In this document: one piece after another, positions 866-56,534 of the stretch
How the letters are laid out: every line of letters starts with the position of its first letter
Numbering within the stretch: the stretch's first letter is position 1
Assembly: GCA_965223735.1 (NCBI GenBank)
Contig: OZ245010.1
Location: forward strand, 916,924 to 980,923
Direction of reading: 5' to 3'
Source: Candidatus Oxydemutatoraceae bacterium
GTDB taxonomy: Bacteria; Pseudomonadota; Gammaproteobacteria; Poriferisulfidales; Oxydemutatoraceae
Length of the DNA: 64,000 nt
The notes under the pieces: generated by a model
What the model saw: only the letters and a program-made list of their open reading frames with translations
What the model was told of the DNA's origin: nothing
Databases searched by the model: none
Made by a program: the position numbers and the translations under genes

Positions 866-871
866 CCGGCC

Positions 872-1444: not shown

Positions 1445-1498
1445 CATCCGGGGCGCGGCGCGCGAACGCTCGGCTATAATCCGCCGCGAGGACACCCG

Positions 1499-2005
1499 AT
1501 GAAGATCACCGCTGTTTACCCCGGCACTTTCGACCCGATCACGAACGGCCATATAGACCTTGCGCGCAGGGCGGCGACACTGTTCAGCCGGGTGGTGATC
1601 GGCGTCGCTGCCGCCGAGGACGAAAACTCCCTGCTCGACCCACAGACGCGCGTGAGCATTGCGCGGGAGACTTTGTCCGACAACAACAGCATCGAGGTCT
1701 TCAGTTTTGACGGCCTGCTGGTCGATTTCGCAAAGCAACACGACGCGCGCGTGATCCTGCGCGGACTGCGTGCGGTATCGGACTTTGAGTATGAATTCCG
1801 TCTGGCCGGCATGAACCGCCAACTCGACAAGAACCTGGAGTCGGTGTTTCTGACGCCGGCCGATGAATACACTTTCATTTCTTCGAGCCTGATCCGGGAA
1901 ATTGCATTGCTGGACGGGGACATCTCGCGCTTCGTGCCCGCGGCCGTCGCACGGGCTGTTGCTCAAGCCGTCGAACGGCGCCGCAAAAAACCGCCCCGAT
2001 CCTGA
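1499..2005 (+). CDS. coaD: phosphopantetheine adenylyltransferase
   Basis: MKITAVYPGTFDPITNGHIDL N-terminus and overall CoaD length (168 aa). Confidence 0.9.
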   Translation: MKITAVYPGTFDPITNGHIDLARRAATLFSRVVIGVAAAEDENSLLDPQTRVSIARETLSDNNSIEVFSFDGLLVDFAKQHDARVILRGLRAVSDFEYEFRLAGMNRQLDKNLESVFLTPADEYTFISSSLIREIALLDGDISRFVPAAVARAVAQAVERRRKKPPRS

Positions 2006-2076
2006 CACCCGCTTTATCCCTGATCAGCGCAGCGACCGGCCGCGCCGACGACGACGAACTGAAACAAACCTGACCC

Positions 2077-3774
2077 ATGCTCCCGTTCTTCAGCAGATTG
2101 TTCTCCGCAGCTTTGCTGTTGCTTGTCGCCTGTACCGTGCAGGCCGCGCCGGCCGCACCGGCAAAATACGCGCTCGCAACCGCCCACCCTCAAGCCACCC
2201 AGGCGGGCGCAAAGATCCTCGACGCCGGCGGCAACGCGTTTGACGCGGCGGTGGCGGTTGCCGCAATGCTGGCGGTGGTTGAACCGTATTCGTCGGGTAT
2301 CGGCGGCGGTGGATTCTGGCTTCTGTACCGCGCCGAAAACAACCAAGAAGTCATGCTCGACGGTCGTGAACGCGCGCCGTACGCCGCCCACCGCGATATG
2401 TTCCTCGACAAAAACGGAGACGTTATCCCGAAACGCTCGGTTGACGGCGTACTCGCCGCGGGCATCCCGGGGCTGCCGGCCGCACTGGTCTATCTCGCAA
2501 AGCACTACGGCCGCCTGCCGCTTTCAACGACGCTGGCGCCTGCAATTCAATCTGCGATACGGGGTTTCGCCGCCGACAAAAAATTCATCCGCCTGCTGCG
2601 TCTGCGCCTCGACGCGGTCCGCGCCTCACCCGCATCGGCGGGTGTTTTTCTGGCTGACGGCAACCCGCCTGAACCGGGACAACTGATCCGCCAGCCGGAA
2701 CTCGCCGAAGTCCTGAACCGGATCGCGGTACAGGGCAGGGACGGCTTCTACCGCGGCGAAACCGCTGAAAAACTTGTCCGCGGCGTCGCCGCGGCGGGCG
2801 GCATCTGGCGGCGCGAGGACTTGACCGAATACGAGGTCGTCGTCAGAACTCCCGTACGCTTCTCCTACCGGAACGCACGTATCACCAGCGCCGCGCTGCC
2901 ATCGTCCGGTGGCATCGTCATGGCGGAGATATTCAACATCCTCTCGCACTTTGACATCGCGTCGATGAACGAAACTGAAAAGACGCACCATCTGGTCGAA
3001 GCGATGCGTCTCGCCTACCGCGACCGCGCGCGTCATCTCGGCGATCCTGATTTCGTCCCGGTGCCGACAGCGGAACTGACGAGCCCGTCCTACGCCGCCG
3101 GGCTGGCGAAAACGATCGACAAGACACGCGCCGGCGGCAACCCGTCCGGCGACAAAACCGGCGACGCAGATGGCGATGCCGGCGGCGAAGGCAGAAACAC
3201 CACGCATTACTCGATTATTGACGCCGAAGGCAACCGCGTCGCCGCCACACTGTCGATCAACTATCCGTTCGGCTCCGGTTTCACCGCGCCCGGCACCGGC
3301 GTTTTACTGAACAACGAGATGGACGATTTCGTCGCAAAACCCGGCACCCCGAACCTGTACGGCCTGGTCGGCGGCAAGGCCAATTCCGTCGCGCCCGGCA
3401 AGCGCATGCTGTCGAGCATGTCGCCGACCTTCATCGACGACGGACAGCGCGTCGCAATTCTCGGCACGCCCGGCGGCAGCCGCATCATCACAATGGTCAC
3501 GCTCGCGATACTCAGATTCCTCGGCGGAGACAACGCGGAGGCCATCGTGTCGGGAAAGCGCTTCCATCACCAATACCTTCCCGACTCAATCCAGTTTGAA
3601 CCACAAGCGCTCGGCGCGAATGCACAGAAACAGTTAAAAGCAATGGGGCACCGACTGACCCCGCTCAAAAGGAATTACGGCAATATGCAGATCGTGATCT
3701 GGAACTACAAGAACAATACGCTGAGCGCCGCCGCCGACCCCCGCGGCATCGGATCGGCACACATACAACAATGA
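2077..3774 (+). CDS. ggt: gamma-glutamyltranspeptidase (secreted)
   Basis: Signal peptide, then a GGT fold with the TTHYSIIDAEGN autoprocessing threonine region and GGSRIITMV. 565 aa. Confidence 0.85.
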   Translation: MLPFFSRLFSAALLLLVACTVQAAPAAPAKYALATAHPQATQAGAKILDAGGNAFDAAVAVAAMLAVVEPYSSGIGGGGFWLLYRAENNQEVMLDGRERAPYAAHRDMFLDKNGDVIPKRSVDGVLAAGIPGLPAALVYLAKHYGRLPLSTTLAPAIQSAIRGFAADKKFIRLLRLRLDAVRASPASAGVFLADGNPPEPGQLIRQPELAEVLNRIAVQGRDGFYRGETAEKLVRGVAAAGGIWRREDLTEYEVVVRTPVRFSYRNARITSAALPSSGGIVMAEIFNILSHFDIASMNETEKTHHLVEAMRLAYRDRARHLGDPDFVPVPTAELTSPSYAAGLAKTIDKTRAGGNPSGDKTGDADGDAGGEGRNTTHYSIIDAEGNRVAATLSINYPFGSGFTAPGTGVLLNNEMDDFVAKPGTPNLYGLVGGKANSVAPGKRMLSSMSPTFIDDGQRVAILGTPGGSRIITMVTLAILRFLGGDNAEAIVSGKRFHHQYLPDSIQFEPQALGANAQKQLKAMGHRLTPLKRNYGNMQIVIWNYKNNTLSAAADPRGIGSAHIQQ

Positions 3775-5509: not shown

Positions 5510-6445
5510 TCAAACAACCAGTGCCTCGATCTCGACACACAGTTCCGGACGACATATCTCTCCCTCGAACAAGGCAACCGATTCGGCCGTGAACTCCGAC
5601 GCGGCAAGCAATTTACGCACCGTGTCGACATAGTCGGCTCGCGCGACATAAATTTTCAAAGAAGTCAGGTGCTGAGACGCGCTGAAATCCGGCATCTCGT
5701 CGATCAGCGCGCGCAGATTGAGAAGCGCCTCGCGCAGTTGCGCCGCCGGATCGCCGGGATGCCGCGACTCATGGCCGACAATGCCCGCGGTGCCCGACAC
5801 GTAAAAATGCGTGCGCCCCTCCCACGCCTTGCAGACTGCGCGCGCGAACAACGGACGTTCCCGCGCCGCCGACAGCGGATAGCGCCAGGCGCTGACCTGG
5901 CGCGGATTCTCAACCATCGTGCCCGACGTGCGCGACGCGAGAAAATACATCACGCCGGAAGCAGCGTGCGTGCCGATCACGGTGGCGGCACAGTAACTCC
6001 GTTTGGGCGACGCCTCGAACGCCGCAAACCGGCCACGGCAAAAGTGCCGGTAGCGCGATACACCCGCCTCCCGCGCGTGAATGTCCGGCAGGTAATGCCA
6101 AGCCCTCAATAAATGAGCAAACCCCAACCCTCCAAACACCCGGAACATGTCCTCATACGCCGCGCGCGTTGCCGCCTCGAGCGACCCGGCGAGGTCAAGG
6201 TACAACCAGCCGAAACAGATCTCTCCGTTATGAGCATAATGGAAAGCGCCGTCGTGGCCGCGCGCAACCGGTGTGGAACTGACCCAGTCCTCGGCGGCGG
6301 CAGTGCCAACGAGCGGACGCAGGCCGGTATGCACCACCGGCTCCCCGCCGCCGCCGTGCGACGGGTCGGGATCAAACGCGACACGGACCAGCAGACCCGT
6401 GTCAGGCTTGTCGTCCCGGTCTGCAGATCGGACATGAATTCGCAT
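5510..6445 (-). CDS. chorismatase-like (FkbO/Hyg5/XanB2-type) protein with C-terminal RidA/YjgF-fold domain
   Basis: The C-terminal ~110 aa (AAQLREALLNLRALIDEM...LKIYVARADYVDTV...EGEICRPELCVEIEALV) look like a YjgF/RidA fold. The N-terminal ~200 aa resemble the chorismatase N-domain. The start is likely the internal Met (MRIHV...). Confidence 0.35.
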   Translation of the reverse strand: MRIHVRSADRDDKPDTGLLVRVAFDPDPSHGGGGEPVVHTGLRPLVGTAAAEDWVSSTPVARGHDGAFHYAHNGEICFGWLYLDLAGSLEAATRAAYEDMFRVFGGLGFAHLLRAWHYLPDIHAREAGVSRYRHFCRGRFAAFEASPKRSYCAATVIGTHAASGVMYFLASRTSGTMVENPRQVSAWRYPLSAARERPLFARAVCKAWEGRTHFYVSGTAGIVGHESRHPGDPAAQLREALLNLRALIDEMPDFSASQHLTSLKIYVARADYVDTVRKLLAASEFTAESVALFEGEICRPELCVEIEALVV

Positions 6446-6556
6446 GGGACGCCGATTATATAGCCGCCGCCAGTGTTCGAGGCCATGTTCGAGGCCACCA
6501 CCTTTGGGACACAAGAGGCAGACGTTTTGCGCGCTTATGGCAGGGCGTCAAGTTTG

Positions 6557-6702
6557 TATCAGGCTGCCTGGGGTCATCCCGAAGTTGACGTGCAGGTTGT
6601 CGGTCGGCGTTGTTGGTTGGCGTGGTGCCCCGCGCGCAGATGTCGCGGCAACCCGGGCAGGCCTGAAACATCGGAGACCAAGTTGCGGGGGCGGTTCAGC
6701 GC
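6557..6702 (-). repeat. ~145-bp IS-derived repeat, copy A (inverted copy of 17413..17555)
   Basis: About 85-90% identical to 17413..17555 in reverse complement (gcgytgaaccgcccccgcaac...cttcgggatgaccc). Copy B lies within the open frame at the 3' end of an rve-type transposase pseudogene. Confidence 0.6.
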
Positions 6703-6832
6703 ATTGCGGCAGAGGCGGCGCAAGTGGAGTACGGGGAGGGGGCCGCGACGGGCGCGGCGTCTTTGGTCTGGCGGAGAAAGAGGGTCTGGCGGAGAACGTG
6801 GAGGAGTGTAGCCGGGAACTGGATTGGTGAGT

Positions 6833-7088
6833 TGGAAGATCGTCTATACAAGGCAGGCGCAAAAAGACGCAAAGAAACCTGCTGGATCGGGATTGAAGCA
6901 CCAAAGCACAGGAATTGCTGGAAACGCTGCGAAACCCGTACCGGGCATTACCACCCTCCGAGAAGCTGGTTGGAGATCTGACCGGCGCTTATGCCCGGCG
7001 GATCGACATCCGGCATCGGCTGGTCTATCAGGCGCCCGATCCCGTGCGCATCGTGAAAGTCATCCGGATGTGGACGCATTACGAGTGA
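6833..7088 (+). pseudogene. YoeB/Txe (RelE/ParE superfamily) toxin gene remnant with frameshift
   Basis: One frame gives (V)SWKIVYTRQAQKDAKK (toxin N-terminus). A second frame gives ...AQELLETLRNPYRALPPSEKLVGDLTGAYARRIDIRHRLVYQAPDPVRIVKVIRMWTHYE*, which is the YoeB-like C-terminus (RRI..HRLVY..HY). A frameshift falls near 6890-6900. Confidence 0.45.
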
Positions 7089-7281: not shown

Positions 7282-7397
7282 CCTGAGCCAACCGGAACCC
7301 GTTATTGTTGTTGCGGTTGTTGCGGTTGTTCCTGTTGCGGTTCGCCGCACGCAGGTTCCCGGCGTTGTTGTTGTTCCAGGAGCCCCCGCGAAGCACG
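7282..7397 (-). repeat. DGR template repeat (TR)
   Basis: 116 bp, co-linear with VR1 (8882..8996) and VR2 (15019..15133). The coding sense is AAC-rich (..SWNNNNAGNLRAANRNRNNRNNRNNNNGFRLAQ). Nearly all TR/VR mismatches sit at TR adenines. Confidence 0.8.
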
Positions 7398-8405
7398 GGC
7401 TCGTATGGCAACAGCCCTCGTAAACTTCACGCCGCCGAAGATATTGCGGCGCAATCCCCACGTCTCGCCATGCCGGGCGTGCCCTATCCAGCTCATCACG
7501 CCGGGCTGAAAATCCGACAATTCACGCCGCCCCGCACGGTACTCTTCCGCCATGCCGCGTAGTCGGCGGCGAAAGCGGTAGCCGTTATCGTTGCGCAGCC
7601 AGCGCCTGCCGGCCGTCAACTGAAACCCCAGCACGTCCTGCTTTTCGCTGGTCCGGCACAGCTGCTGCTTCAGCGGGTGCAGTTGCAGGCCCAAGACGCT
7701 CAACGCTTGACCTGCCCTGTCGCGCAAAGCCCACAGATCAGCCTTGTTGTCGCCGAACAGGAAGAAGTCATCGACATAGCGCATGTAACCCCCCGCCCGC
7801 CGTTGCAGCTCGTGGTCAAGGGCATTCAGGTACAGATTGGCCAGCACCTGGCTGGTCAGATTGCCGATCGGCAGCCCCCGCCTGTCCCCGGCGGAATCAA
7901 CGATGGCGTCGAGCGCCCGCAACGCATATTCATCTTTCAGATAACGCCGGATGCAGGCTTTCATCCCGTCGTGCGGGATCGAGGGGAAATAGGCCGCGAT
8001 GTCGAGATGCAGCACGTAGGCATAACGTCGGGCCTGCGCCTGGTAATAGTCCAGTGCGCGATGCACCCCCATGCCTTTGCGGCAGGCCCAGGATTGATCG
8101 ATCATCGATCGATCCAGCCACGGCTCGATGACGTTCATCAGCGCGTGATGAACCACCCGGTCGGCAAAAGGCGCGCAGGAGATCACTCTCGGCTTGCGTT
8201 CGTAGAGGGTGAATTGCCGGTAGCCGCCCGGCTGCCACGTGTTGCCCGCCAATCGCCGTTGCAACTCGATCAAGTTGGTTTCCAGATCCAGCGCGAAGCG
8301 GGCGACGTCATCGCGCCGGGCCTTGCCCCGCCGGGCTTTGCGCCAGGCGAGATGCAGATTGTCGAAACTGCACACCTGCGGCCAGATCCTGCCCAGGCGC
8401 TTCAT
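7302..8405 (-). CDS. DGR reverse transcriptase
   Basis: RT motifs including RYVDDFFLFG (YxDD). Immediately downstream of avd with a 4-bp overlap. The 3' end of the ORF reads through the TR in another frame (..QQPQQPQQQ). Confidence 0.85.
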   Translation of the reverse strand: MKRLGRIWPQVCSFDNLHLAWRKARRGKARRDDVARFALDLETNLIELQRRLAGNTWQPGGYRQFTLYERKPRVISCAPFADRVVHHALMNVIEPWLDRSMIDQSWACRKGMGVHRALDYYQAQARRYAYVLHLDIAAYFPSIPHDGMKACIRRYLKDEYALRALDAIVDSAGDRRGLPIGNLTSQVLANLYLNALDHELQRRAGGYMRYVDDFFLFGDNKADLWALRDRAGQALSVLGLQLHPLKQQLCRTSEKQDVLGFQLTAGRRWLRNDNGYRFRRRLRGMAEEYRAGRRELSDFQPGVMSWIGHARHGETWGLRRNIFGGVKFTRAVAIRARASRGLLEQQQRREPACGEPQQEQPQQPQQQ

Positions 8406-24674: not shown

Positions 24675-25877
24675 ATGTTAATGGACGTATTGACCGGCAT
24701 CGGCCTGCTGAATTTGCCGTGGTGGGGCTACATCGCCATCACCCTGATAACGACGCATATCACGATCGCCTGCGTGACACTTTTCCTGCATCGCTCCCAG
24801 GCGCATCTCTCGGTGGAATTTCACCCCGCGGTGACGCACCCGATGCGCTTCTGGCTGTGGATGACAACCGGCATGATCACGCGCGAGTGGGTCGCGATCC
24901 ACCGCAAGCACCATGCCACGGTGGAAACCGAGCACGACCCGCACAGCCCGAAAATACACGGCATCCTGAAAGTGCTGTTCGGCGGTACCGAACTCTATCG
25001 CAGGGAAGCCGCCAACAAAGACACGCTCGAAACTTACGGACGCGGCACACCGCAGGACTGGATTGAAAAAAATCTCTACACCAAACGATCGACCGGAGGC
25101 ATTTGTATACTTTTCGGCGTGTATTACACACTGCTCGGCTTTTGGGGCATCGCGATGTGGGCGGTGCAGATGATGTGGATTCCGTTTTTTGCCGCCGGCG
25201 TGGTCAACGGCGCCGGGCATTTCTTCGGATACCGCAACTACGAGACCGACGACAACTCGACCAATCTGGGTAACATCGGCCTGCTCATCGGGGGCGAGGA
25301 ACTGCATAACAACCACCACGCTTTCCCGGGGTCAGCGAAATTGTCGGCGCAGGCCTGGGAATTTGATATTGGCTGGCTGTACATCAACCTGCTGAAACAC
25401 TTGCGGCTGGCGTGCGTCAAAAGAGTGATGCCGCCGCGCAAAGTCGCGCGGCGCGTGTCGCGCCTTGACTTGGAAACCGTACAGACGCTTCTGCACGGAC
25501 GCCTGCACGTGATGGCGGACTACGTGAACACCGTCATGCACCCCGTGTTCAGGCAGGAACTGAAACTCGCAAAAGGCTCCTACCTGCGCCTTCTGAAAGG
25601 CGTGAAGAAGCCGTTTCTCTATCACGAAAAAAACATCGGGCGCCACGACCTCAACCGCCTGAAAGAAGCGCTAGTGGACAACGAAACACTGAAAACGGTT
25701 TATGAGTTCAGGCATCGCCTGCAATCGCTGTGGCACGATCTGCGCGGCGACCACGAAAAGCTAAGAGTTGCGTTGCTCGAATGGTGCTGGCAAGCCGAAC
25801 AAAGCGGTCTGCACGCGCTTGAGGAATTTGCCCGCAAGATCAAAGGCTGCACCGAGATCAGGCAGACCCCCGCCTGA
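24675..25877 (+). CDS. membrane fatty-acid (acyl-CoA/acyl-lipid) desaturase
   Basis: His boxes HRKHH and HNNHH with N-terminal TM helices. 400 aa. Confidence 0.8.
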   Translation: MLMDVLTGIGLLNLPWWGYIAITLITTHITIACVTLFLHRSQAHLSVEFHPAVTHPMRFWLWMTTGMITREWVAIHRKHHATVETEHDPHSPKIHGILKVLFGGTELYRREAANKDTLETYGRGTPQDWIEKNLYTKRSTGGICILFGVYYTLLGFWGIAMWAVQMMWIPFFAAGVVNGAGHFFGYRNYETDDNSTNLGNIGLLIGGEELHNNHHAFPGSAKLSAQAWEFDIGWLYINLLKHLRLACVKRVMPPRKVARRVSRLDLETVQTLLHGRLHVMADYVNTVMHPVFRQELKLAKGSYLRLLKGVKKPFLYHEKNIGRHDLNRLKEALVDNETLKTVYEFRHRLQSLWHDLRGDHEKLRVALLEWCWQAEQSGLHALEEFARKIKGCTEIRQTPA

Positions 25878-38192: not shown

Positions 38193-40343
38193 TCAATTAC
38201 TAGCAAAAATGTTCGCAATACCATCAAGTGCGTTTTTCAGTTTCGGCACCAATTTGTCTCGCTCTTTCTTATTAAGCCACTTATTTTTTTCGCCTCCTTT
38301 ATGATCGTATGGATGAGAACTTGGCAATGTGTTTCTTCTCTCATGCAGGATTCGGAACACTTCTGCCTCAGACGGGTAAGTGATATCGAATGGAGTGCGT
38401 ACCGCAATAAGAGAACCATAGTTGACACGGTTTCCGCGCCTGTCTTCTGTTTTTGAATGTCCATTGAGTCCTTTTTGCTTGAGAAAATCAAAGAACTGGC
38501 AAACAACTAGATTATTGAAACTATCCTGGGACATTAGCCATTCAGAACGGGCACTTTCAAAGTGTGCTTTCGCTTCTATCAGAATTTGCAGTGCGTGTTC
38601 GTATTCTTCACCAAGCAGCTTATGCCAAATTGATGAGTGTTGGCAACCATAGCGCTCTACCAGAATATCCTTGATATAATCTTTCTCAGCTTTGTGGTGA
38701 CGTCGAATCACCCCAAGAGAACGCAGGGCGATTTTACAATGTCCAGGCAGGTTTCTCTGACGCAACTGAAGTGCATTAAGCGTAACTTCTCGACTTTGCA
38801 ATACACGCGCACCAGCCAACTGTTCCATCAGGTTGCCTTTTAACAGGGTAACAGCGTGCTTCTTAAATTCCTGATCGCTTAATCTGAATTCCTGATTACT
38901 TAATATTATCGGTGCAAGAAGGCTGCGACTGATCGAATAATGTTCCTTTGCAAACCGTTTACTAGTACGGGCAGGCCCTTCACATTTCATGAGGAAATGC
39001 CTCACGCCCCAGGATAAAGCCATACAATGTGATTTGTTTCCAGCATCCTTCCGTGCAATTGGGAGACCACGTCGTAATTCTTCTGGTCCAGCAAGTCGCG
39101 CAATAACATGCCAAAGTTCACCGCGAACGTAGGAATAAGGCACTCCTGTCTCCAAGTAATCAAGTGCTACTCTGGCAATAGTTCGCCGTCTTTCAAAATT
39201 GTTGAAGTAAGCGATAAATGCATCGATGTGTTCCGGATGCCGAGGCAATAACCTAAGAACAGTTTTAAGTAATTCCGTATCTTTCGGTGCCCGATACATC
39301 ACATACCGGAATCGCGTCTTGTCTTTGACCTTCTGTGGCCTGCCACCTATCGCGGGCGTGAGAATGCTACGAGCTTTCTTTGCCGTTATAAACGATTCTG
39401 CAGAATTTCGGTTAGCCCTTGGTGGAATACTTGGTAATGCTCCCATCGCATCTGCGACTGACTTCATCTCACGTATTTCGAACTTTTTCCCTTGCGGTAT
39501 TAGGCCACGTTCATGGCATTTTTGTTCCAAGAGGATTGTTGCTTCCCTGACTTCATTTTCTGTGCGCCCAAACAGTCGAATATCGTCAACATAGCGCAGA
39601 TATTGAAATGGTTGTTTTTGTAAACTAATGTCAATTGGCAGGAAGAAAGCTTCTGCAAGGAAGTTTGACGCGACGGGGCCTTGCGGTATTCCATGATCTT
39701 TCATGGTGCCTTTATTTTCAGCTGACCATTTTCGCAACCATTTTTTCGCAATATCTCTCGCAATATCTCTGGTCTCTGCGCCGACTTGTGACTCAACCTT
39801 CAGCAAAAGATCATGCGATATTGTGTCGTAGAATGCAGACAAATCGAAATGTGCGGACCACTTGTACTCGTTATTAAATACTTCAATGCATTTTTCCTGA
39901 AAGGCGTGATACGTTGTTTGCCAGTGTTCCACGAAGAAAATGGAGCCCTTCTGAGCCAATAATTTATTGCTGAATACCGTCTTTAATTCCACACCTTGTC
40001 TTTTTTTATGCAATTTTTTTGCGAACAGATTAGCGATTGCTTGGAGAAGTATCTGATCTTCAATCCCAAGAAGTGATAGAGGTCTTTGCAACCCAGATGG
40101 CTTGGGAATATATAATCGTGTCGCGTAAGTAGGTTCCCATGCCTTTGCTTTTAGGTCTTTATGAAGTTGCTTGATGTGCTCATCAAGAGCACTTTCGTAA
40201 ACCAAGTAGGATGGACGAAAAAACCGTTTATACTGGAGGTTCGTGCCTGTATTGATCCGTCGCCACGCCAGCTTCAGGTTTTGAGTCGATATCAGAGATT
40301 TCCATTCCATAAGTGTACTTCCGATTCTGTATGAGGCCATCAC
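38193..40343 (-). CDS. Abi/UG-type (defense-associated) reverse transcriptase with ~400-aa C-terminal helical extension
   Basis: RT motifs 1-2 (YIPKPSGLQRPLSL), A (FDLSAFYDTI), B' (GIPQGPVASNFL) and C (YLRYVDDIRLFG). 716 aa, AT-rich. The first ~10 codons overlap an IS481-like end, so the true start may be the internal Met at ~40310. Confidence 0.75.
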   Translation of the reverse strand: MMASYRIGSTLMEWKSLISTQNLKLAWRRINTGTNLQYKRFFRPSYLVYESALDEHIKQLHKDLKAKAWEPTYATRLYIPKPSGLQRPLSLLGIEDQILLQAIANLFAKKLHKKRQGVELKTVFSNKLLAQKGSIFFVEHWQTTYHAFQEKCIEVFNNEYKWSAHFDLSAFYDTISHDLLLKVESQVGAETRDIARDIAKKWLRKWSAENKGTMKDHGIPQGPVASNFLAEAFFLPIDISLQKQPFQYLRYVDDIRLFGRTENEVREATILLEQKCHERGLIPQGKKFEIREMKSVADAMGALPSIPPRANRNSAESFITAKKARSILTPAIGGRPQKVKDKTRFRYVMYRAPKDTELLKTVLRLLPRHPEHIDAFIAYFNNFERRRTIARVALDYLETGVPYSYVRGELWHVIARLAGPEELRRGLPIARKDAGNKSHCMALSWGVRHFLMKCEGPARTSKRFAKEHYSISRSLLAPIILSNQEFRLSDQEFKKHAVTLLKGNLMEQLAGARVLQSREVTLNALQLRQRNLPGHCKIALRSLGVIRRHHKAEKDYIKDILVERYGCQHSSIWHKLLGEEYEHALQILIEAKAHFESARSEWLMSQDSFNNLVVCQFFDFLKQKGLNGHSKTEDRRGNRVNYGSLIAVRTPFDITYPSEAEVFRILHERRNTLPSSHPYDHKGGEKNKWLNKKERDKLVPKLKNALDGIANIFASN

Positions 40344-40450
40344 ATATGGGACAAATGAGGCAGATGTTTGGCAAGCATTTGGCTGGATGTCAAATTGTCG
40401 AGTCCCCGGTGCGGGCGCCGGTCATTATAGCGAGCCAGATACGCCAGCAG
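40344..40450 (-). mobile_element. IS481-family 3'-end remnant (copy 3) abutting the RT start
   Basis: Reverse complement is ~90% identical to 24490..24590. Confidence 0.5.
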
Positions 40451-40504
40451 ACGGGTGTTGAACTCCCGCACATCGCCAGGTAACAGCTCTTCCTCGTAGT
40501 TCAC

Positions 40505-45340: not shown

Positions 45341-45850
45341 ATGAAAATCATCAGCGGCGGACAAAGCGGCGTGGATCGCGGCGCGCTCGACGCCGCACGC
45401 ACGCTTGGTCTTGATTACGGCGGCTGGTGCCCGCGCGGCGGCCTCGCCGAAGATCATCCCGCGCCACCCGGCCTGCTCGCGGACTATCCGGCGCTTGAGG
45501 AAACCCCCTCGTCCGACTACCTGCAACGCACCGAGTGGAACGTGCGCGACGCAACGGCCACCTTGATCATCGCGCCGAACGCGGAACGCGCCGGGAGCGA
45601 CGGCACCGGCTACACGCTGGACTGCATCCGGAAGCACCGCAAAGACCACTGCATCGTGTTGCTCGACGACCCCGACCACCGCCGCAAGGCGCTCGAATGG
45701 CTCGCGCGCCTGGATGACGACGCGATCCTGAACGTCGCGGGGCCGCGCGAAAGCAAAGCACCGGACATCGGCCGACAGACACGTGAACTGCTGTGCGACC
45801 TGCTGCGCAATTTGTCGGTGAGCGTGCCCGGCGGAACACCCGGCGGGTAG
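45341..45850 (+). CDS. putative molybdenum-cofactor carrier / SLOG-family protein
   Basis: IISGGQSGVDRGALDAA...GGWCPRG...QRTEWNVRDA pattern. Confidence 0.5.
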   Translation: MKIISGGQSGVDRGALDAARTLGLDYGGWCPRGGLAEDHPAPPGLLADYPALEETPSSDYLQRTEWNVRDATATLIIAPNAERAGSDGTGYTLDCIRKHRKDHCIVLLDDPDHRRKALEWLARLDDDAILNVAGPRESKAPDIGRQTRELLCDLLRNLSVSVPGGTPGG

Positions 45851-45924
<74 letters not shown>

Positions 45925-46165
45925 CCGAATAGGAACGCATAGTTTACCAGCCTCAAAGAGTTAAGTATCACCCTTCATTATCTTCGCCATCGCGCCCGTA
46001 AAGGCTTTGTCATGCTCAACTCGCCGAATTGTTCCCAGCCTTCCGCAATAAATTGTTGGGGGCCAAAATCCATTCGGATTGCAGACGGATCACACGGCGA
46101 GCCAGTCAGTACCTCACAAATCAGGCGTTCCAAGTTACGTTCAGAAATGTCAGCAGGCGATGGCG

Positions 46166-46694
46166 TTATGGGGGTTGCCAACCAAAACTTGCCTTCAGTT
46201 CTCGAAGCATTTCAAATGTACTGACACACGGAACGTGAAATTGTCTGCATACATTGGGCAACGAGATACATCTTTGGGCATCAGGCGTGTATGCTTCCTG
46301 TGTTACCACGGTATGCCCATACACCTTGGCATAAGCGGCAAGCCAACCATCCGCTTTATCAGCAAACTCTGCTTTTGCATCGTCTTTGAATTGTCCGTGC
46401 CCAATAACCCATCGCATTATTTGTTTAAAAACATCATTAACTTCCGGGGGATCGGTTGGTTGAAAAAATGAATCAGATAATGCCGCCCATGTTCTCAGAT
46501 TTTCAGCCACGTTCTCCGGTATGTTTCCCGCAAGGACCTCTCCACGAACCCTGTTGATACTTACCACTCGTTCAGTTTAGTGATAAAAAATCAAACATTC
46601 CCAAAAACCGGGGGCAGAGGTCAAACGCATAGTAACGACGGCACGCTTCTATAAAAACATTGGCATCAAGTACATAAATTGGCGCCTGGTTCAT
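46166..46694 (-). pseudogene. DUF4411-family (PIN-like) toxin-type gene, frameshifted
   Basis: N-terminus MNQAPIYVLDANVFIEACRRYYAFDLCP (DUF4411 start) from the ATG at 46694. Frame is lost at homopolymer runs (ccccc, ttttt) near 46575-46600. C-terminal part ..ADGWLAAYAKVYGHTVVTQE..LPNVCRQFHVPCVSTFEMLRELKASF lies in another frame (listed ORF 46166..46567). Confidence 0.55.
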
Positions 46695-46699
46695 TGTAT

Positions 46700-47848
46700 T
46701 TAAAGATTGATGCGCCGCGCAAACTCGTCAAAAGTTGCACCTTTCATTCCAGTCAAAGAATAAGCGTCCTGATAAAGCAATCTCCCCTCTTTTGTAGCGC
46801 GCACGATCGCGCTACCGAACCGACGCCCAACGCGCACATTCTGATTGTTCCAAAAATCCCCGCCGCTGCGCGTTTTCCGTCCTTTTTGCTGAATGTTGTC
46901 CCGGTATCCACGGTAGAACTCAATAAACTCCGTGCGGCTGATCAAACCAATATCCAGTAGTCTGCGAGCGATGACCAAAGAACTGACTTTGAATTGGCGG
47001 GCAAGAAATTGATATGCATTCCCACTCCGTTCAGCTTCTTGCCACAATTGATGCAACTTATCGGTCGGCACCAGAAATTCAGCTGCAACTTGGTCGCAAA
47101 ATCTTTCTTCAGCAGCTTCAGTCGGCAGCAAGTTGTCAAAATTGGACACTCCCTCTTGCCCAAGCCAGAGATGCGCCATCTCATGCGCAAACGTGAACAT
47201 CTGCGCGCCTTTGAAATCGGCATTGTTGATGAAGATCAGCGGCGCATAACTATCGCCCAAGGCAAAGCCTTGAAACTCTTCTACGTCCAGTTTTCGGCGT
47301 GTGTTGTTGCCCACCACACCATTGATCATGACCAGAATGCCTGCGTCTTCGGCGTCTTGACGCAGGCTTCGCAAGGCATCAGACCAAGACTCTTGTTGTC
47401 GCGCCCAACTATCGTCAACCCTCAAAACGGCACGCATGTCAACTGCCACTTGTTCCGGTTGGCTGTTCAAAGTGGCATTACCTACAAAACCCAGAGGATC
47501 TGCACCTTCCTCAACCAGATATTCCTTCATCCACGCTTGCCTGCGTTGCATTGTGTGCACTGTGTCCAGCAGATCAGGGCTTGGGCGTTGCAATGGAGCA
47601 TTGCCCACGGTGCGAAAATCAGGAATCGACAACCTGTCCTCAAGCGGTTCACGCAAGTACAAATAGCCCAACGGCGTGTGAGTATGATGAGCCAGATTTT
47701 CAACCTGCTTCACGCTCAACTCACCGCGTTGCTCCCACTCAAAAACACGCTTCGGCTTTACCCCCACTTTTTTGGCCAGATCCGCTTCACTCAGGTACGC
47801 GCGCGCTCGCGCCCATTTCAGTACAGACGGTTGCAGGGAAATATTCAT
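46700..47848 (-). CDS. XRE-family HTH fused to ImmA/IrrE-family metallopeptidase
   Basis: N-terminal HTH (..LAKKVGVKPKRVFEWE..) and HEXXH site FTFAHEMAHLWLG. Confidence 0.8.
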   Translation of the reverse strand: MNISLQPSVLKWARARAYLSEADLAKKVGVKPKRVFEWEQRGELSVKQVENLAHHTHTPLGYLYLREPLEDRLSIPDFRTVGNAPLQRPSPDLLDTVHTMQRRQAWMKEYLVEEGADPLGFVGNATLNSQPEQVAVDMRAVLRVDDSWARQQESWSDALRSLRQDAEDAGILVMINGVVGNNTRRKLDVEEFQGFALGDSYAPLIFINNADFKGAQMFTFAHEMAHLWLGQEGVSNFDNLLPTEAAEERFCDQVAAEFLVPTDKLHQLWQEAERSGNAYQFLARQFKVSSLVIARRLLDIGLISRTEFIEFYRGYRDNIQQKGRKTRSGGDFWNNQNVRVGRRFGSAIVRATKEGRLLYQDAYSLTGMKGATFDEFARRINL

Positions 47849-47875
47849 GGCACGGTCACTTTATTCCAGCAGAAC

Positions 47876-48376
47876 TCACGTTAGTGCGTCGCAAGAACCA
47901 GCCATATTTTCTGCGGCTGGCGCACCGCCCAGTTCATAAATAAACACCTGCACATCCGTCAGTTGCTCCATCGCAGATTCAATGCATAGCCTGACTTCAT
48001 CCCAGTCCAGGCCGCCCAATCCGCAACCCAAAGGCGGAATTGCGACTGAACGAATATCATTCACCCGAATGGTTCTGACCAAGTCCTTGAAGCCCGATTC
48101 AATATCGCTTATACGGGTCTTGCCACGCCAATGCCTTTTGGTGGGAAAGTTGATGATGTAATAAGGACAGGTCAACCAACCGGTTTCATACACGAACATT
48201 TGTCCGGGTTGAACTTTCTCCCGCCTGCAAGCCGTTGCATACGCTTTGAAGTTGTCCGGGTAAGATTTTTTGAACTGCAATGCAATGCCGCGCCCCATGA
48301 CGCCAACGCAATTGACTGTGTTCACAAGCGCCTCGGTATCGGCTTTGAGGATGTCACCAGTGGTTAATTCAAGCAT
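47876..48376 (-). CDS. macro-domain (ADP-ribose-binding/processing) protein
   Basis: DTEALVNTVNCVGVMGRGIALQF...SVAIPPLGCGLGGLD macro fold motifs. 166 aa. Confidence 0.75.
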   Translation of the reverse strand: MLELTTGDILKADTEALVNTVNCVGVMGRGIALQFKKSYPDNFKAYATACRREKVQPGQMFVYETGWLTCPYYIINFPTKRHWRGKTRISDIESGFKDLVRTIRVNDIRSVAIPPLGCGLGGLDWDEVRLCIESAMEQLTDVQVFIYELGGAPAAENMAGSCDALT

Positions 48377-48389
48377 GGATGCCTCTTGC

Positions 48390-48734
48390 TTAGTAATACC
48401 AATCTGGTTTTATTGCAAAGCGCGGGGCACGTTCGCTCGTCGCCAATGCATCTGATACCTGATTATAGACTGCCCGTACACAAACCCTGATAGGCATGAC
48501 CGACCAAGGGCAAAAATAAAACGGCACGCAATCACCTACACGCAAGTTCGGATGACTGGTCAATCCCTTTTGTAACCATCGGCGTTTAATGTGGTTCAAG
48601 CCGATGGTTGTACCAGGTAAACCGCACCGGACCACCTCGGCGTCACACCACAAAAATCCACTTGCAATAATCGACGGCAGTCAGTTTATATGAACGATGT
48701 GATAGATTTTCGGTTGCCCTAGGATAGCATTCAT
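48390..48734 (-). pseudogene. DarT-like (DUF4433) ssDNA ADP-ribosyltransferase toxin remnant with in-frame TGA and apparent internal deletion
   Basis: MNAILGQPKIYHIVHIN-TGA-LPSIIASGFLWCDAEVV...GDCVPFYFCPWSVMP...DWYY*. KIYHIVHIN.LPSI and VPFYF match, as far as I recall, the conserved DarT N-terminal motifs. Only ~114 codons. Confidence 0.4.
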
Positions 48735-48803
48735 GTACTGCCAAAGGAATGAAAAGCAGAATCATGCATTATATTCTTTTCATTACCGACCAATAAGCAA
48801 CGT

Positions 48804-49433
48804 ATGACTGATCTCGAAAAAACAGCCCAAACTCCGACTCCAGTTGATAGTTCAAAGTTCAACACTCATTGCGAGTTGCCTTACGGCTTGGAAACAGATC
48901 ATATAGCTCAGGCGATGAAAGAGTTCATCGATTTTCTTGGGTTCCTTAATCAACAGCTAAGTACGAAAGGATTGCCACGGCTCGAAAGCTTTCTGATGCC
49001 CGCTAATTTTAGCGGCATTGTCGGTGAATTCATGAATCTCAGAATTCCTGAACATTGTCTCGGGTTAGTGAAAAATCAGTACCATAATGGCCACCCGGAT
49101 TTAATTCCGTCCGGTCATTTTCCCGATGATGCAGTTCAATATTCAGACGAGGGGGTAGAAATTAAAGGCTCGCGCCGTTCGAGTGGATGGCAGGGCCACA
49201 ACCCGGAGGCTGTATGGTTAATGGTGTTTCATTTTGATAGCAATACATCTAATGACGAGCATAAGAAAATTCCACCAAAACCGTTTCAATTCAAGGGCGT
49301 ATATGCTGCAAAACTTGAAAGTGACGATTGGTCATTTTCAGGACGGTCTGCAACCAGCCGACGGACAATAACCGCGAGCGTGAAACACAGCGGCGTTACA
49401 AAAATGAAGAATAACTGGGTGTATAAGTTCTAA
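48804..49433 (+). CDS. candidate Type II restriction endonuclease (PD-(D/E)xK)
   Basis: GHPDLIP...DEGVEIKGS (PD...ExK). AT-rich and convergent with the MTase below, overlapping it by 4 bp. Confidence 0.4.
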   Translation: MTDLEKTAQTPTPVDSSKFNTHCELPYGLETDHIAQAMKEFIDFLGFLNQQLSTKGLPRLESFLMPANFSGIVGEFMNLRIPEHCLGLVKNQYHNGHPDLIPSGHFPDDAVQYSDEGVEIKGSRRSSGWQGHNPEAVWLMVFHFDSNTSNDEHKKIPPKPFQFKGVYAAKLESDDWSFSGRSATSRRTITASVKHSGVTKMKNNWVYKF

Positions 49434-50368
49434 GCCAATGATAGATACTGCTGAGATTCAAATTCACTCGGTTGCGCCAGCCTTGGTATAGCGCTCTCTG
49501 CGAGCTCATAATAATCACGATACCTCTCAATACCGATACACGAGTAACCAATAGATTCAGCGGCGGCCACGGTTGAACCTGAGCCCATGAACGGATCTAT
49601 AACCACGCCCTCACCCAGCGGGAGCGACGCATAAACGATCTGCCTGAGAAATGACTGGGGTTTAAGGCTCGGGTGGTCTGCTATCCCACGTTCTTCCTGA
49701 GGTGTACGCTCGCTGTATATAACGTCCTCAAACGGATTGCCGTCAGGTTTTCGGCGAAGACCGCCTGTCTGAAAAGTTGCAAGGCAGTCGCTGACCTTCA
49801 TGTTTTTGGGCAACGGCTTTCTGAAGATGCCCCATGGTTCATAGCATCCGCGTGGCATTGAACAAACACCAGAATATTGTTCTTCGGCGTTCTTTGGGCG
49901 GTCGCCACCCCTCAATGTTCGCACGACTCGTATTACGTTCCCGCGATATTCAAGCCCTGAATCCGAAATTGCTGAAAAAATCAATTGAGACAAGAATGAA
50001 TTTGAGGCGACGAATACATGCCCCCCTGGACGAACTGCACGAAATGCGGCCCGTGCCCATTCAAAGAAGAATCTCTTCAGCGAAGCACGTTCTTTTTCAT
50101 TCAGCGCCGTAAACCGTGGCAAAGGAGACCGGGCGCTTCCATCAAATGACGGGGGGAGACGCCAAATTCCGCCATGTCCATTGGCGCGTTTCTCCAGTTG
50201 GTCAAAATCATATTCTTTAACCCCGTATGGGGGATCTGTCACAATGCCATGGACGCTATTTTCGGCGATCCTGCCAAACCACTCCAGACAGTCGGCATGC
50301 ACAATCAAAGAGTTACCAACCATTCTGGATGGATAATCCAAAGAGAAGGAATTTAACTGGCTGCCCAT
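49430..50368 (-). CDS. beta-class amino DNA methyltransferase (N4-C/N6-A)
   Basis: IVTDPPYG (motif IV) and DPFMGSGSTVAAA (motif I). Start set at the internal Met because the listed ORF (to 50503) reads into the IS481-like remnant. Confidence 0.7.
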   Translation of the reverse strand: MGSQLNSFSLDYPSRMVGNSLIVHADCLEWFGRIAENSVHGIVTDPPYGVKEYDFDQLEKRANGHGGIWRLPPSFDGSARSPLPRFTALNEKERASLKRFFFEWARAAFRAVRPGGHVFVASNSFLSQLIFSAISDSGLEYRGNVIRVVRTLRGGDRPKNAEEQYSGVCSMPRGCYEPWGIFRKPLPKNMKVSDCLATFQTGGLRRKPDGNPFEDVIYSERTPQEERGIADHPSLKPQSFLRQIVYASLPLGEGVVIDPFMGSGSTVAAAESIGYSCIGIERYRDYYELAESAIPRLAQPSEFESQQYLSLA

Positions 50369-50454
50369 TCTGGATTCTTGGTTTCGGTTGAAATACCAAT
50401 GGTGATTAAAAGTAGCGCATTCTAGGAGATAAAGCAACCTGTCATTTCCGACCC

Positions 50455-50520
50455 ACCACATTACTGAAACGAACGAGGCAGATGTCTTGCAAGCATCCGG
50501 CAAGGTCTCAGCTTGTCGAA
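50455..50520 (-). mobile_element. IS481-family 3'-end remnant (copy 4, more diverged) upstream of the MTase
   Basis: gaggcagatgtcttgcaagcatccggc resembles gaggcagatgtttggcaagcatttggc at 40365. Confidence 0.35.
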
Positions 50521-50702
50521 TCCCCGACGCAGTCGCCGACTGTTAAAGCGGTACATCCAATCCATGCGAGTGACCGGCAGATGCTCGTTGAACCCCCACA
50601 GGTCATCAATCCACACCATCAAATAGTGTATAATCGCGCCGCCGGACGCGGATAACTCAACCAGCTCTCAATCAATTCCTGCATCCAGACCACGCAGACG
50701 CC

Positions 50703-51173
50703 ATGGAAGACAAACAGTTTGTTAATCAATTTTTGACCGTGCTCGGAATTCTGGTCGGCATCACCATCCTGATCCTGATCATTGCGAGGGTGCTTTCCGG
50801 CACGCACAACGAGCCCGACCAGGCGATGCAGGAAGCCATCGCCGCGCGCATCGAGCCCATCGGTAAAGTCAACGTCGGCACGGTGCCCGTCCCCCCGGCG
50901 GTGCAACAGGCCGAAGTGCAGACTACTGACGCATCAATGAGCCCGGCTGATGTTTATCAGACCGCGTGTGTGGTCTGTCACGCGACGGGTGTCGCCAACG
51001 CACCCGTGTACGGCGACAAACCCGCGTGGGCGACGCGCCTCGGCGACCTCCAAACCCTCTATGCGAATGCACTGAACGGCAAGGGTGCGATGCCCGCAAA
51101 AGGCGGGCGCCCGGACTTGTCAGACGAGACGATCAAGGCGGTCGTTGACTATATGCTCGAAGCGGTGCGTTAA
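50703..51173 (+). CDS. membrane-anchored cytochrome c5-type protein
   Basis: N-terminal TM helix and CVVCHATG heme-binding site. Confidence 0.7.
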   Translation: MEDKQFVNQFLTVLGILVGITILILIIARVLSGTHNEPDQAMQEAIAARIEPIGKVNVGTVPVPPAVQQAEVQTTDASMSPADVYQTACVVCHATGVANAPVYGDKPAWATRLGDLQTLYANALNGKGAMPAKGGRPDLSDETIKAVVDYMLEAVR

Positions 51174-54490: not shown

Positions 54491-54835
54491 TGCCTGAAAA
54501 TAGACGCCTTCAACGAATACTTGACCAAATGCCCGCAAAACACCCGCCCCGTTTGTCTCATAAATATGGTGATCGCAAACAAAAACTTGCCTGGATCAGA
54601 AGGGGCGTTTATTCTCTAAAATACAATTAAAGAAAATCGCCATCTCTAAAAATCCAAGCAATCTATGACGGAAATGAAAAAAATGAAAAAGTCCAACCAA
54701 CCACTCGCAGAGGTTTTTGGACATTGGCCGACAGATTTCAGCTCGAAAGCGGTACGTTTCCGGAAAAATTAACTCTGCCCATTTAACAACAAAGTCCCAA
54801 GTTGCACAAAAGACAAAGTTAACAACCCACTTGGT

Positions 54836-55567
54836 GTGTGCAGCGTACTGCATGGAAAGAGCCCTGTAATCACCTGCCCTGTAAGATTCCGTGAAAACTG
54901 GATTATTGCAGATGATGCAGCAAATTTCTTCTTTGGTTCTGACACAACATGGACATCGCTCACAGAGGCAAGGTTAACTGATTACTACGGAAACTCTGCT
55001 GGGAATGTTGATGTAGTCCTGGTGGCTTATGACGATGCAGGAAAAATTTATGATCTCGGGGCACTTGAAATTCAAGCGGTTCATATCTCAGGAAATGTAA
55101 GAAAACCATTTGCTTTCTATATGAGTGATTGCCGCAAGAACGCGACAATGAATTGGTTTGATCAGCCAAACTATCCAAGACCGGACTTTCTATCCTCACC
55201 GAGAAAGAGGCTTGCTCCGCAACTCATGTTCAAGGGCGGTATTTTGCACGCCTGGAATAAGAAAATAGCTGTGGCTTTGGACTCGTCTTTTTTCAAAACT
55301 CTCCCAAACTTAGATGAGACCGATCAGACTGAAGCAGATATCGCATGGCTGATTTATGATCTTATCTCTTCGAGTAACAACTTAAGTTATGAGCTTCAGA
55401 GAACCAGAGTGATATACACTAAGTTTACTAAAGCCCTGAACACCATAACAAAACCGAAGATTGGAAAGATAGAGAGCTTCATGAAGTTACTTCAATCAAA
55501 GGCAGATAAAAAGTTAGAGAGTCTTCCTGCCGACAATACCATTGAGACCTCCTTTGGAGGAGGGTAA
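54836..55567 (+). CDS. hypothetical protein, candidate Type II restriction endonuclease partner of the Dam-like MTase
   Basis: AT-rich 243-aa ORF immediately upstream of, and overlapping, the MTase. Weak D..D..E.Q pattern only. Confidence 0.3.
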   Translation: MCSVLHGKSPVITCPVRFRENWIIADDAANFFFGSDTTWTSLTEARLTDYYGNSAGNVDVVLVAYDDAGKIYDLGALEIQAVHISGNVRKPFAFYMSDCRKNATMNWFDQPNYPRPDFLSSPRKRLAPQLMFKGGILHAWNKKIAVALDSSFFKTLPNLDETDQTEADIAWLIYDLISSSNNLSYELQRTRVIYTKFTKALNTITKPKIGKIESFMKLLQSKADKKLESLPADNTIETSFGGG

Positions 55568-56534
55568 TATGCAGAGACCACTTTTCAGTGATGAACCTGA
55601 ACCTTTGAGAGTGGTGAATGTAGCCTCTGTTCCACAGCGTAGCCCATTTCGCTATCCGGGAGGCAAAACATGGTTTATCCCAAGGCTGCGTGAATGGCTC
55701 CTCAGCCAACCTTCAAAACCAAAAGTATTGATTGAACCATTTGTCGGCGGTGGGATTGTGTCGCTGACAGCGGTGTTTGAAAATCTGTCAGATAAAGTTC
55801 TTATGGTTGATCTGGACGAAGAAATTGCGGCAGTCTGGCAAACCATAGTTGATGGTGAGGCAGAATGGCTTGCAAGAAAAATTCTTTCTTTTGAAATGAC
55901 GAAAGACAACGTCATCGCCGAGCTCCAAAAAAAAAGGAGAACTCAGAGAGAAAAGGCATTTCAAACGATAATAAAAAACAGAACATTCCATGGCGGCATC
56001 CTGGCATCAGGCTCAGGCTTTGTAAAAAACGGGGAAAATGGGAAAGGTATTCTTTCGAGATGGTATCCGGGCACACTTGCAAAGAGACTGAGAAATATCA
56101 ATCAAGTGGTCGGGAAGATTCAATTCAAGCAGGGTGATGCTTTCGAGACCATTGATCAATACAAGAATATTCCTGAAACGGTGTTTTTCATCGACCCGCC
56201 ATATACAGCCGGTGGCAAAAAAGCGGGTAGCCGTTTATACACACACTTTGAATTGGATCATAAAGCCTTATTTGGATTATGCACTTCAATCAAGGGGGAT
56301 TTGATAATGACCTGCGATAATACAACCGAGGTTAAGGAGCTGTCCATACAACATGGATTTCAAGCTAAACCCATCTCAATGAAAAACACCCACCATGCTG
56401 CAATGACCGAGCTGGTCGTTGGAAAGAACCTGGATTGGATGCGAGGAATTGATAGGGTGCTTGAAGAACAAGCTCTGTACCAAACCGGAAAAGGAAAGAA
56501 CCCACCACAGCAAAATGATCAAGCTCCCGGGTGA
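55542..56534 (+). CDS. alpha-class (Dam-like) N6-adenine DNA methyltransferase
   Basis: N-terminal motif I EPFVGGG and C-terminal motif IV FIDPPYT. AT-rich. Confidence 0.75.
   Translation: MRPPLEEGNMQRPLFSDEPEPLRVVNVASVPQRSPFRYPGGKTWFIPRLREWLLSQPSKPKVLIEPFVGGGIVSLTAVFENLSDKVLMVDLDEEIAAVWQTIVDGEAEWLARKILSFEMTKDNVIAELQKKRRTQREKAFQTIIKNRTFHGGILASGSGFVKNGENGKGILSRWYPGTLAKRLRNINQVVGKIQFKQGDAFETIDQYKNIPETVFFIDPPYTAGGKKAGSRLYTHFELDHKALFGLCTSIKGDLIMTCDNTTEVKELSIQHGFQAKPISMKNTHHAAMTELVVGKNLDWMRGIDRVLEEQALYQTGKGKNPPQQNDQAPG

Follow-up and report, generated by a model that had tools for sequence, protein, structure and literature searches.

Is a string of four genes in the genome of an Oxydemutatoraceae bacterium a working toxin-antitoxin system or the ruin of one, and why would its antidote-type genes outlast its toxin-type genes? 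The genes lie on the minus strand at 46166-48734 of a 64,000-nt stretch of contig OZ245010.1, which is called the window here. They are, in order, a remnant of the toxin gene darT, a macrodomain gene of the DarG type, a gene for a helix-turn-helix (HTH) domain fused to an M78 (ImmA/IrrE) peptidase (immA), and a broken DUF4411 gene. An original prediction had named these genes in this order, and the open reading frames (ORFs) and their frames are as claimed. It had also proposed that both toxin-type genes are decayed while both antidote-type genes stay open, and the lesions and the counts of changes at conserved positions agree with this. Profile searches confirm the DarT, Macro/DarG, Peptidase_M78, and DUF4411 assignments, with the HTH_3 match just below its cut-off. 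The locus is very probably part of a decaying, horizontally acquired defence islet, in which DarT and DUF4411 are dead and the DarG macrodomain and the HTH-M78 gene remain open.

Lesions in the toxin-type genes

The darT pseudogene (48390-48734) has 115 codons and carries two lesions, a TGA at codon 18 (48681-48683) and an in-frame internal deletion. Its translation reads MNAILGQPKIYHIVHIN*LPSII...PFYFCPWSVMPIRV...KPDWYY, where the asterisk is the stop; the peptide quoted in the original prediction and its TGA are exact. The N-terminal part fits models of DarT, which is a DNA ADP-ribosyltransferase toxin. It scores 80.6 bits with PF14487 (cut-off 22.5) over profile positions 1-74 of 201 only, 83 bits with the PADLOC DarT model, and 90.6 bits with NCBIfam toxin_DarT (NF048013) over positions 1-72 of 204, which is under the equivalog cut-off of 150. 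Thirteen DarT proteins encoded at related loci were aligned with the remnant. These homologues have arginine at codon 18, or asparagine in one of them, and the remnant keeps residues 1-80 and then jumps in frame to the final ~30 residues with the family end ...PDWYY. With an intact 216-amino-acid (aa) DarT as the tblastn query, residues 1-83 fall at 48734-48495 and residues 177-216 at 48509-48393, and therefore about 93 codons (~280 bp) have been lost at a junction around 48486-48495. The gene had been predicted to be half the expected length, and the shortness stands, with its cause refined to this deletion.

The deleted segment holds the motif GKQAEFL with the catalytic glutamate. In Thermus DarT this glutamate is E160, and the E160A change abolishes toxicity (PMC5179494). 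At near-invariant columns, meaning the conserved alignment positions of each family, the DarT remnant differs at 6 of 34, among them D17N, R53W, and R77W. The corresponding counts are 4 of 66 for the macrodomain protein, 0 of 16 for DUF4411, and 0 of 63 for ImmA, the last scored against 76 homologues. An intact DarT is an uninterrupted ORF of ~210-220 aa with the catalytic glutamate, and the window copy lacks both features. With its early stop, its catalytic glutamate deleted, and conserved aspartate and arginine residues replaced, darT is dead here.

The DUF4411 gene (46166-46694) encodes a PIN-like, toxin-type protein, and its two halves are in different frames (46572-46694 and 46166-46567). 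With PF14367 the N-terminal piece scores 32.1 bits over profile positions 1-26, and the C-terminal piece scores 97.4 bits over positions 40-159 of 159. The frame is lost by a +1 insertion in a run of five C at 46610-46614. Deleting one C from this run gives ...AFDLCPGFWECLIFYH*TERVVSINRV..., where the asterisk is an in-frame TAA at 46577-46579, 31 nt from the frameshift. The reconstructed protein aligns end to end without gaps to 11 intact homologues (168-178 aa, 48-56% identity), and the stop falls at position 39 of the alignment. The frameshift had thus been predicted rightly, but it had been placed in T runs at 46575-46600 and the TAA had been missed. The gene has the family match and the expected place downstream of the HTH-M78 gene, and it has no continuous ORF of ~170 aa including the N-terminal LDANV...E. 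Any restart product would miss the N-terminal acidic residues of the PIN-like site. The inactivation is probably very recent, since none of the 16 near-invariant columns is changed.

The four lesions are two stop codons, one ~280-bp deletion, and one frameshift, and three of the four are not homopolymer events. Could the toxin genes be intact in the organism and broken only by homopolymer base-calling errors or by assembly? The 1.85-Mb source contig suggests long reads, a technology prone to homopolymer errors, and the frameshift is one added base in a C5 run. The TGA, the TAA, and the in-frame deletion are not errors of this kind, however, and 108 homopolymer runs of five or more bases lie within 15 long intact ORFs of the window with no frameshift among them. 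In addition, over 45875-48299, a span that includes both DUF4411 lesions, the window is matched at 100% identity by a Logan contig from run ERR13605531, though this contig may share the same reads. An artefact is therefore very improbable.

It is harder still to credit that recoding rescues the genes, with read-through or selenocysteine insertion at TGA and +1 frameshifting giving low levels of full-length toxins. The DUF4411 shift does occur in a slippery-looking run, CCCCCGG. On the other hand, the TAA follows downstream in the corrected DUF4411 frame, the catalytic core of DarT is missing however the TGA is read, and the intact homologues require no shift. TGA is also the commonest stop codon in the window, ending 13 of the 24 long ORFs, so the standard code applies, and selenocysteine or an altered genetic code was rejected as a reading of the TGA. 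The TAA and the deletion by themselves appear to have effectively refuted recoding already.

Open antidote-type genes

The macrodomain gene (47876-48376) is open and encodes 166 aa. It scores 94.1 bits with PF01661 (Macro). The match to NCBIfam antitoxin_DarG (NF048014) is 262.8 bits, over the cut-off of 250 and confined to profile positions 2-158 of 338, and the match to PADLOC DarG is 256.9 bits over positions 1-153 of 329. The macrodomain motifs NTVNCVGVMGRGIA, NFPTKRHWR, and GCGLGGL are all present, and each of the four changed near-invariant columns differs conservatively. The protein has DarG's N-terminal macrodomain, and it is far short of the full length of ~345-360 aa with a C-terminal domain. 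DarG lengths were counted in the 80 nearest loci from species-representative genomes, of which 77 could be measured to the stop and three run off the contig. DarG has 344-363 aa in 76 of these 77, and the sole exception is locus L065 with 165 aa. The window protein tracks its homologues up to ...GAPAAENM in the inter-domain linker and then ends. The ImmA and macrodomain genes had both been called intact; this holds for ImmA, while the macrodomain gene is open but encodes a DarG truncated in the linker. Four DarG C-terminal domains used as tblastn queries gave no match anywhere in the window at E values up to 1. A separate ORF for this domain, a split that exists in locus L084, was rejected on that result. 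An exact look-up of the macrodomain protein in a contig index gave no record.

The substrate of DarT is thymidine in single-stranded DNA, to which it attaches ADP-ribose, and the macrodomain of DarG takes this adduct off. In enteropathogenic Escherichia coli (EPEC) the DarG macrodomain alone removes ADP-ribose from single-stranded DNA and rescues cells from DarT, and the C-terminal domain works separately by binding DarT (PMC7003065). Because the EPEC macrodomain suffices by itself, the macrodomain-only DarG of the window can probably still reverse DNA ADP-ribosylation.

The immA gene (46700-47848) is intact and encodes 382 aa, with an XRE-like HTH domain fused to an M78 (ImmA/IrrE) zinc peptidase. 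It scores 63.2 bits with Peptidase_M78 and 22.1 bits with HTH_3, marginally below the cut-off of 23. The zinc site HEMAH (HExxH) is invariant in the alignment of homologues, and the 382 codons are free of lesions. ImmA probably still binds DNA through its HTH domain and retains its protease site. A 28-nt direct match (82%) links 47710-47737, in the part of immA that encodes the HTH domain, with 46010-46037, in the tail of a short ORF discussed below that contains an hsdR stub. It may be due to chance or be the trace of a second HTH gene.

Both pairs resemble known systems. In DarTG of Thermus aquaticus, EPEC, and Mycobacterium tuberculosis (the type with DarT2 and a DarG macrodomain), darT likewise precedes darG, and the N-terminus of the window DarT, its macrodomain, and a location associated with type I restriction-modification (RM) all agree (PMC5179494). 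The window locus differs in that its DarT is a pseudogene without the catalytic core and its DarG is without the C-terminal domain that sequesters DarT, and so it would be unable to poison the cell or abort infection. DUF4411 downstream of a fused HTH-DUF955 (M78) gene was predicted to be part of a three-component toxin-antitoxin (TA) system (Matelska et al. 2017, PMC5499597). The window has the fused gene directly before DUF4411, a pair that is also found in 80 metagenomic relatives (ImmA identity 45-60%), but its DUF4411 carries a frameshift and a stop codon. ImmA also matches the PADLOC models of RmrA from RosmerTA (RmrT/RmrA; best 64.8 bits) and of CapP (50.7 bits), mainly over the peptidase domain. 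No RmrT match was found among the neighbours of immA. The partner is DUF4411 rather than RmrT or a CBASS operon, so the likeness is at the level of the M78 domain only and the locus was not filed as Rosmer.

The islet and related loci

The four genes belong to a low-GC insertion of ~4.8 kb (~45929-50699) between a tRNA-Arg(CCG) gene and a cytochrome c gene. The islet has a GC content of 0.487, compared with 0.568 outside it in the window and 0.60-0.65 for the flanks; over ~45930-50600 the local values range from 0.45 to 0.53. In two relatives of the host (L167 and L168, whose PurH proteins are 68% and 72% identical), the cytochrome c, tRNA-Arg(CCG), cpYpsA, LysR, and purH genes occur without the insert. 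Their DNA homology to the window ends at 45925 and 45928 and restarts at 50700 and 50703. The tRNA-Arg gene (45850-45924, minus strand, anticodon CCG) borders the 5' side of the islet; it was found by ARAGORN and scores 67.2 bits with the Rfam tRNA model.

The rest of the islet suggests where the genes came from. The ORF at 45978-46181, downstream of DUF4411, contains an N-terminal stub of hsdR, the gene for the R subunit of a type I restriction enzyme (46086-46154, minus strand). The stub was found by tblastn with the 1003-aa HsdR of L069 and corresponds to residues 3-25 (65% identity, E = 2.8e-5). In L082, where an intact hsdR lies downstream of the cassette, that gene opens with the same motif. 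Nothing of a type I RM operon other than HsdR residues 3-25 is recognizable in the window; there is no hsdS match, and hsdM was not used as a separate query. Almost all of the 80 ImmA relatives have an intact DUF4411 gene directly downstream, and many of these pairs lie between hsdS and hsdR. Similarly, L069 has darT-darG between hsdS and hsdR, and the work that discovered DarTG noted a position inside a type I RM operon as typical (PMC5179494). In L157, L162, L164, and L090, the gene directly upstream of immA is a full-length darG. Comparison with intact operons had been proposed, and L162 supplies the reference: hsdS, darT, darG (a 367-aa ORF), immA (383 aa), and DUF4411 (164 aa), all of them open. 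The hsdR stub therefore points to descent from a type I restriction operon that held darTG and immA-DUF4411. The locus is best described as two adjacent modules, DarT/DarG and ImmA/DUF4411, both apparently cargo of such an operon, and not as one four-gene system.

The nearest relatives of the window macrodomain protein are in three sister loci (L082, L083, and L086), which are on three contigs of more than 1 Mb from one ENA sample. They have a macrodomain-only DarG of 159-161 aa (69-71% identity) and an immA gene of 393 aa (51% identity). About 30 codons of DUF4411 are left in them, followed by an unrelated ORF and then by hsdR or an hsdR stub. DarT is intact (214 aa) in L086 only, where it coexists with the macrodomain-only DarG, and is reduced to fragments in L082 and L083. 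The DarG truncation and the junction with immA are old, because the sister loci share them at 51-71% protein identity. For the same reason, a recent insertion of immA-DUF4411 that split darG in this genome was rejected. Each of the toxin-type genes, darT and DUF4411, was lost on two or more occasions through different events, while the macrodomain gene and immA are open in all four genomes.

Two further observations were made in the sister loci. Their similarity to DUF4411 (~5694-6232) stops at codon 30-32 (...AFDIC-S-G), at most three codons from the site of the window frameshift, and what follows is an unrelated 135/154-aa ORF that has no Pfam match. This may be a coincidence or a fragile site. 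Immediately upstream of its intact darT, L086 carries a Fic gene and a NADAR-domain gene, the kind of antidote found in DarT1 systems (802-3064).

Damage to DarT and DarG is found more widely. The darT gene of L157 (2995-3633) has an in-frame stop at a conserved tryptophan beside full-length darG, immA, and intact DUF4411, and it is a further independent inactivation. Shortened DarT also lies beside full-length DarG in L005, L007, L021, L029, and L062. Some of these shortened genes, and of the two with internal deletions in L035 and L040, may be assembly errors in metagenome-assembled genomes (MAGs). Macrodomain-only DarG has arisen independently in L065, L158, and L084. In L065 (6001-6498, 165 aa) and L158 (6657-7142, 168 aa) it is an orphan with no detectable darT nearby, and in L158 it lies between immA-DUF4411 and hsdR. 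In L084 (4001-6828), from a Planctomycetes MAG (GCA_019456145.1), an intact DarT is followed by a 165-aa macrodomain ORF and an inserted 263-aa ORF with no Pfam match, and the DarG C-terminal domain is at 6277-6819 within a 382-aa ORF.

Internal deletions of DarT have occurred in L035 (5649-5981, 110 aa) and L040 (5660-5986, 108 aa) as well, just upstream of full-length darG. Like the deletion in the window, they are in frame and always spare the final ...DWYY just before darG. This raises the question of whether the short DarT is a functional or regulatory form rather than a pseudogene, since the retained end could keep translation coupled to darG or could maintain a peptide that binds DarG. 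This is quite improbable. The three deletions have different boundaries and are therefore independent events and not one conserved form, and in each of them the part with the catalytic glutamate (Thermus DarT E160; PMC5179494) is missing. In the window copy, codon 18 is a stop and conserved aspartate and arginine residues are radically changed as well, so it is better regarded as a pseudogene.

A separate restriction-modification pair occupies the rest of the islet, outside the string of toxin and antidote genes. The restriction-endonuclease-like gene (48804-49433, plus strand, 209 aa) is apparently full length. PADLOC gives it a weak REase_II match (E = 1.1e-6), its best homologue (213 aa, 57% identity) aligns at residues 2-208 to residues 2-208, and a PDB sequence search gave no meaningful match. 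The gene is convergent with, and overlaps, an intact gene for a type II DNA methyltransferase (N6_N4_Mtase; 49430-50503, minus strand), which scores 70.9 bits with PF01555 and 320.7 bits with PADLOC MTase_II.

Other searches of the region found little. A repeat search across the islet gave no flanking direct repeats as attachment sites, only short and probably chance matches. A scan of 45850-50750 found fewer promoter-like sites than shuffled sequence (2 versus 5.7) and terminators at chance level. The Rfam scan of the whole window found the tRNA-Arg alone, and an ARAGORN "tRNA-???" at 25540-25629 (minus strand, 90 nt, odd anticodon) is probably false, as it has no Rfam match and lies inside an ORF (24675-25877). 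Other low-GC patches (0.41-0.46) at ~40000-40500 and 54500-56000 could be small acquired islets.

Decay of the modules and fate of the antidotes

The loci suggest the following history. The ancestor would have been a type I RM operon with the DarT/DarG and ImmA/DUF4411 modules between hsdS and hsdR, in which DUF4411, a PIN-like predicted nuclease, was paired with the ImmA-type HTH-M78 protein. It would have reached the host by horizontal transfer and later eroded, with darT and DUF4411 destroyed, hsdR reduced to a short stub, and hsdS and apparently hsdM gone. Neither the type I operon nor the two modules have kept their killing components, and only the separate type II pair is still intact. 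Loss of the toxin first would be the only viable order of decay, as lineages that lost the antidote first would be killed, and the surviving loci therefore look like selective decay of toxins. A similar trend is known from chromosomal TA systems that fail functional tests, most of which have truncated toxin ORFs (PMC13617665). That study of classical type II pairs in Photorhabdus likewise found truncated or interrupted toxin ORFs and recurrent, independent pseudogenization in small variable spots (Belot et al. 2026), while the systems here are DarTG and ImmA/DUF4411 and their host is an uncultured gammaproteobacterium whose genome is small.

Decay of toxins with retention of antidotes had been predicted to recur in this DNA. 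It does recur across loci, independently in L082, L083, and L086. Within the window recurrence is weak, because the only further example, a yoeB-like pseudogene, has no recognizable antitoxin and the restriction enzyme is full length. The yoeB-like gene (6824-7088, plus strand) is frameshifted as claimed, and its reconstruction scores 37 bits with PF06769; no antitoxin is recognizable upstream of it in any frame. It adjoins a reverse transcriptase gene (7302-8405, minus strand, 367 aa, RVT_1 71.5 bits) with a Gln/Pro-rich C-terminal tail, which may belong to a retron, a group II intron, or a defence-associated class of reverse transcriptase.

Are the surviving antidote genes under selection? 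The ratio of nonsynonymous to synonymous substitution rates (dN/dS) among the three sister loci is 0.17-0.31 for the macrodomain gene and 0.28-0.35 for immA, including the pair already without darT, with few substitutions behind these values (9-31 nonsynonymous and 14-25 synonymous). This suggests purifying selection on both genes in the sister loci. The simplest alternative is that the whole islet is decaying and the antidote genes are unselected, so that they are open merely because little time has passed. The loss of the C-terminal half of DarG, of hsdR and hsdS, and apparently of hsdM agrees with this, as do the changes in the macrodomain and the apparently very recent inactivation of DUF4411. 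In contrast, ImmA is without change at conserved columns or lesion over 382 codons, while the toxin remnants have two lesions each in 115 and 175 codons, and the macrodomain-only DarG and immA are intact in three sister genomes with low dN/dS, including the darT-deleted pair. Neutral decay of the whole islet is therefore unlikely.

Several points weigh against a decay confined to the toxin side. The adjacent restriction enzyme is likewise a toxic partner, and it appears intact. The antidote side is damaged as well, with half of DarG gone and changes at 4 of 66 near-invariant columns. The dN/dS values come from few substitutions and describe the sister lineage rather than this genome. Finally, a recent loss of DUF4411 tells little of long-term selective decay.

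Overall, the macrodomain and ImmA may persist as protection from related toxins on other elements, or they may simply not have decayed yet. The clean ImmA sequence, the dN/dS values of the sister lineage, and the intact DarT beside a macrodomain-only DarG in L086 suggest a present role in the cell, and the loss of half of DarG argues against one. A stronger proposal is that the macrodomain-only DarG and the HTH-M78 protein are a selected antidote-only pair directed against incoming DarT and DUF4411 toxins (anti-addiction), or that the macrodomain serves in general repair of ADP-ribosylated DNA. This proposal is doubtful. If it were true, the incoming toxins would be carried by phages, plasmids, and other islands, and the linker truncations that DarG has undergone repeatedly and independently (in the window lineage, L065, L158, and L084) would be adaptive, yielding a stand-alone antidote at low cost. 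Orphan antitoxins are known, including phage-borne DarG-like and NADAR enzymes that neutralize DarT (PMC11825919, PMC11481870, PMC13309987), and they too are antidote-type enzymes without a working cognate toxin. The orphan in the window differs from these in that it is chromosomal and originated when its own toxin gene decayed rather than as phage counter-defence, and its protective role is only putative.

None of the gene families is new, nor is their architecture or this kind of decay, and no new mechanism is involved. The value of the locus is as a well-resolved case of the death of toxin-antidote modules, which can be compared with three sister loci, an intact cassette, and an empty site. 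The toxin genes were lost at least twice independently per module, while the antidote genes are under apparent purifying selection. A DarG reduced to its macrodomain can persist, and in L086 it does so next to an intact DarT. Such strings of genes should not be annotated as active DarTG or as active defence systems. Orphan DarG macrodomains in bacterial chromosomes are candidates for immunity to foreign DarT.

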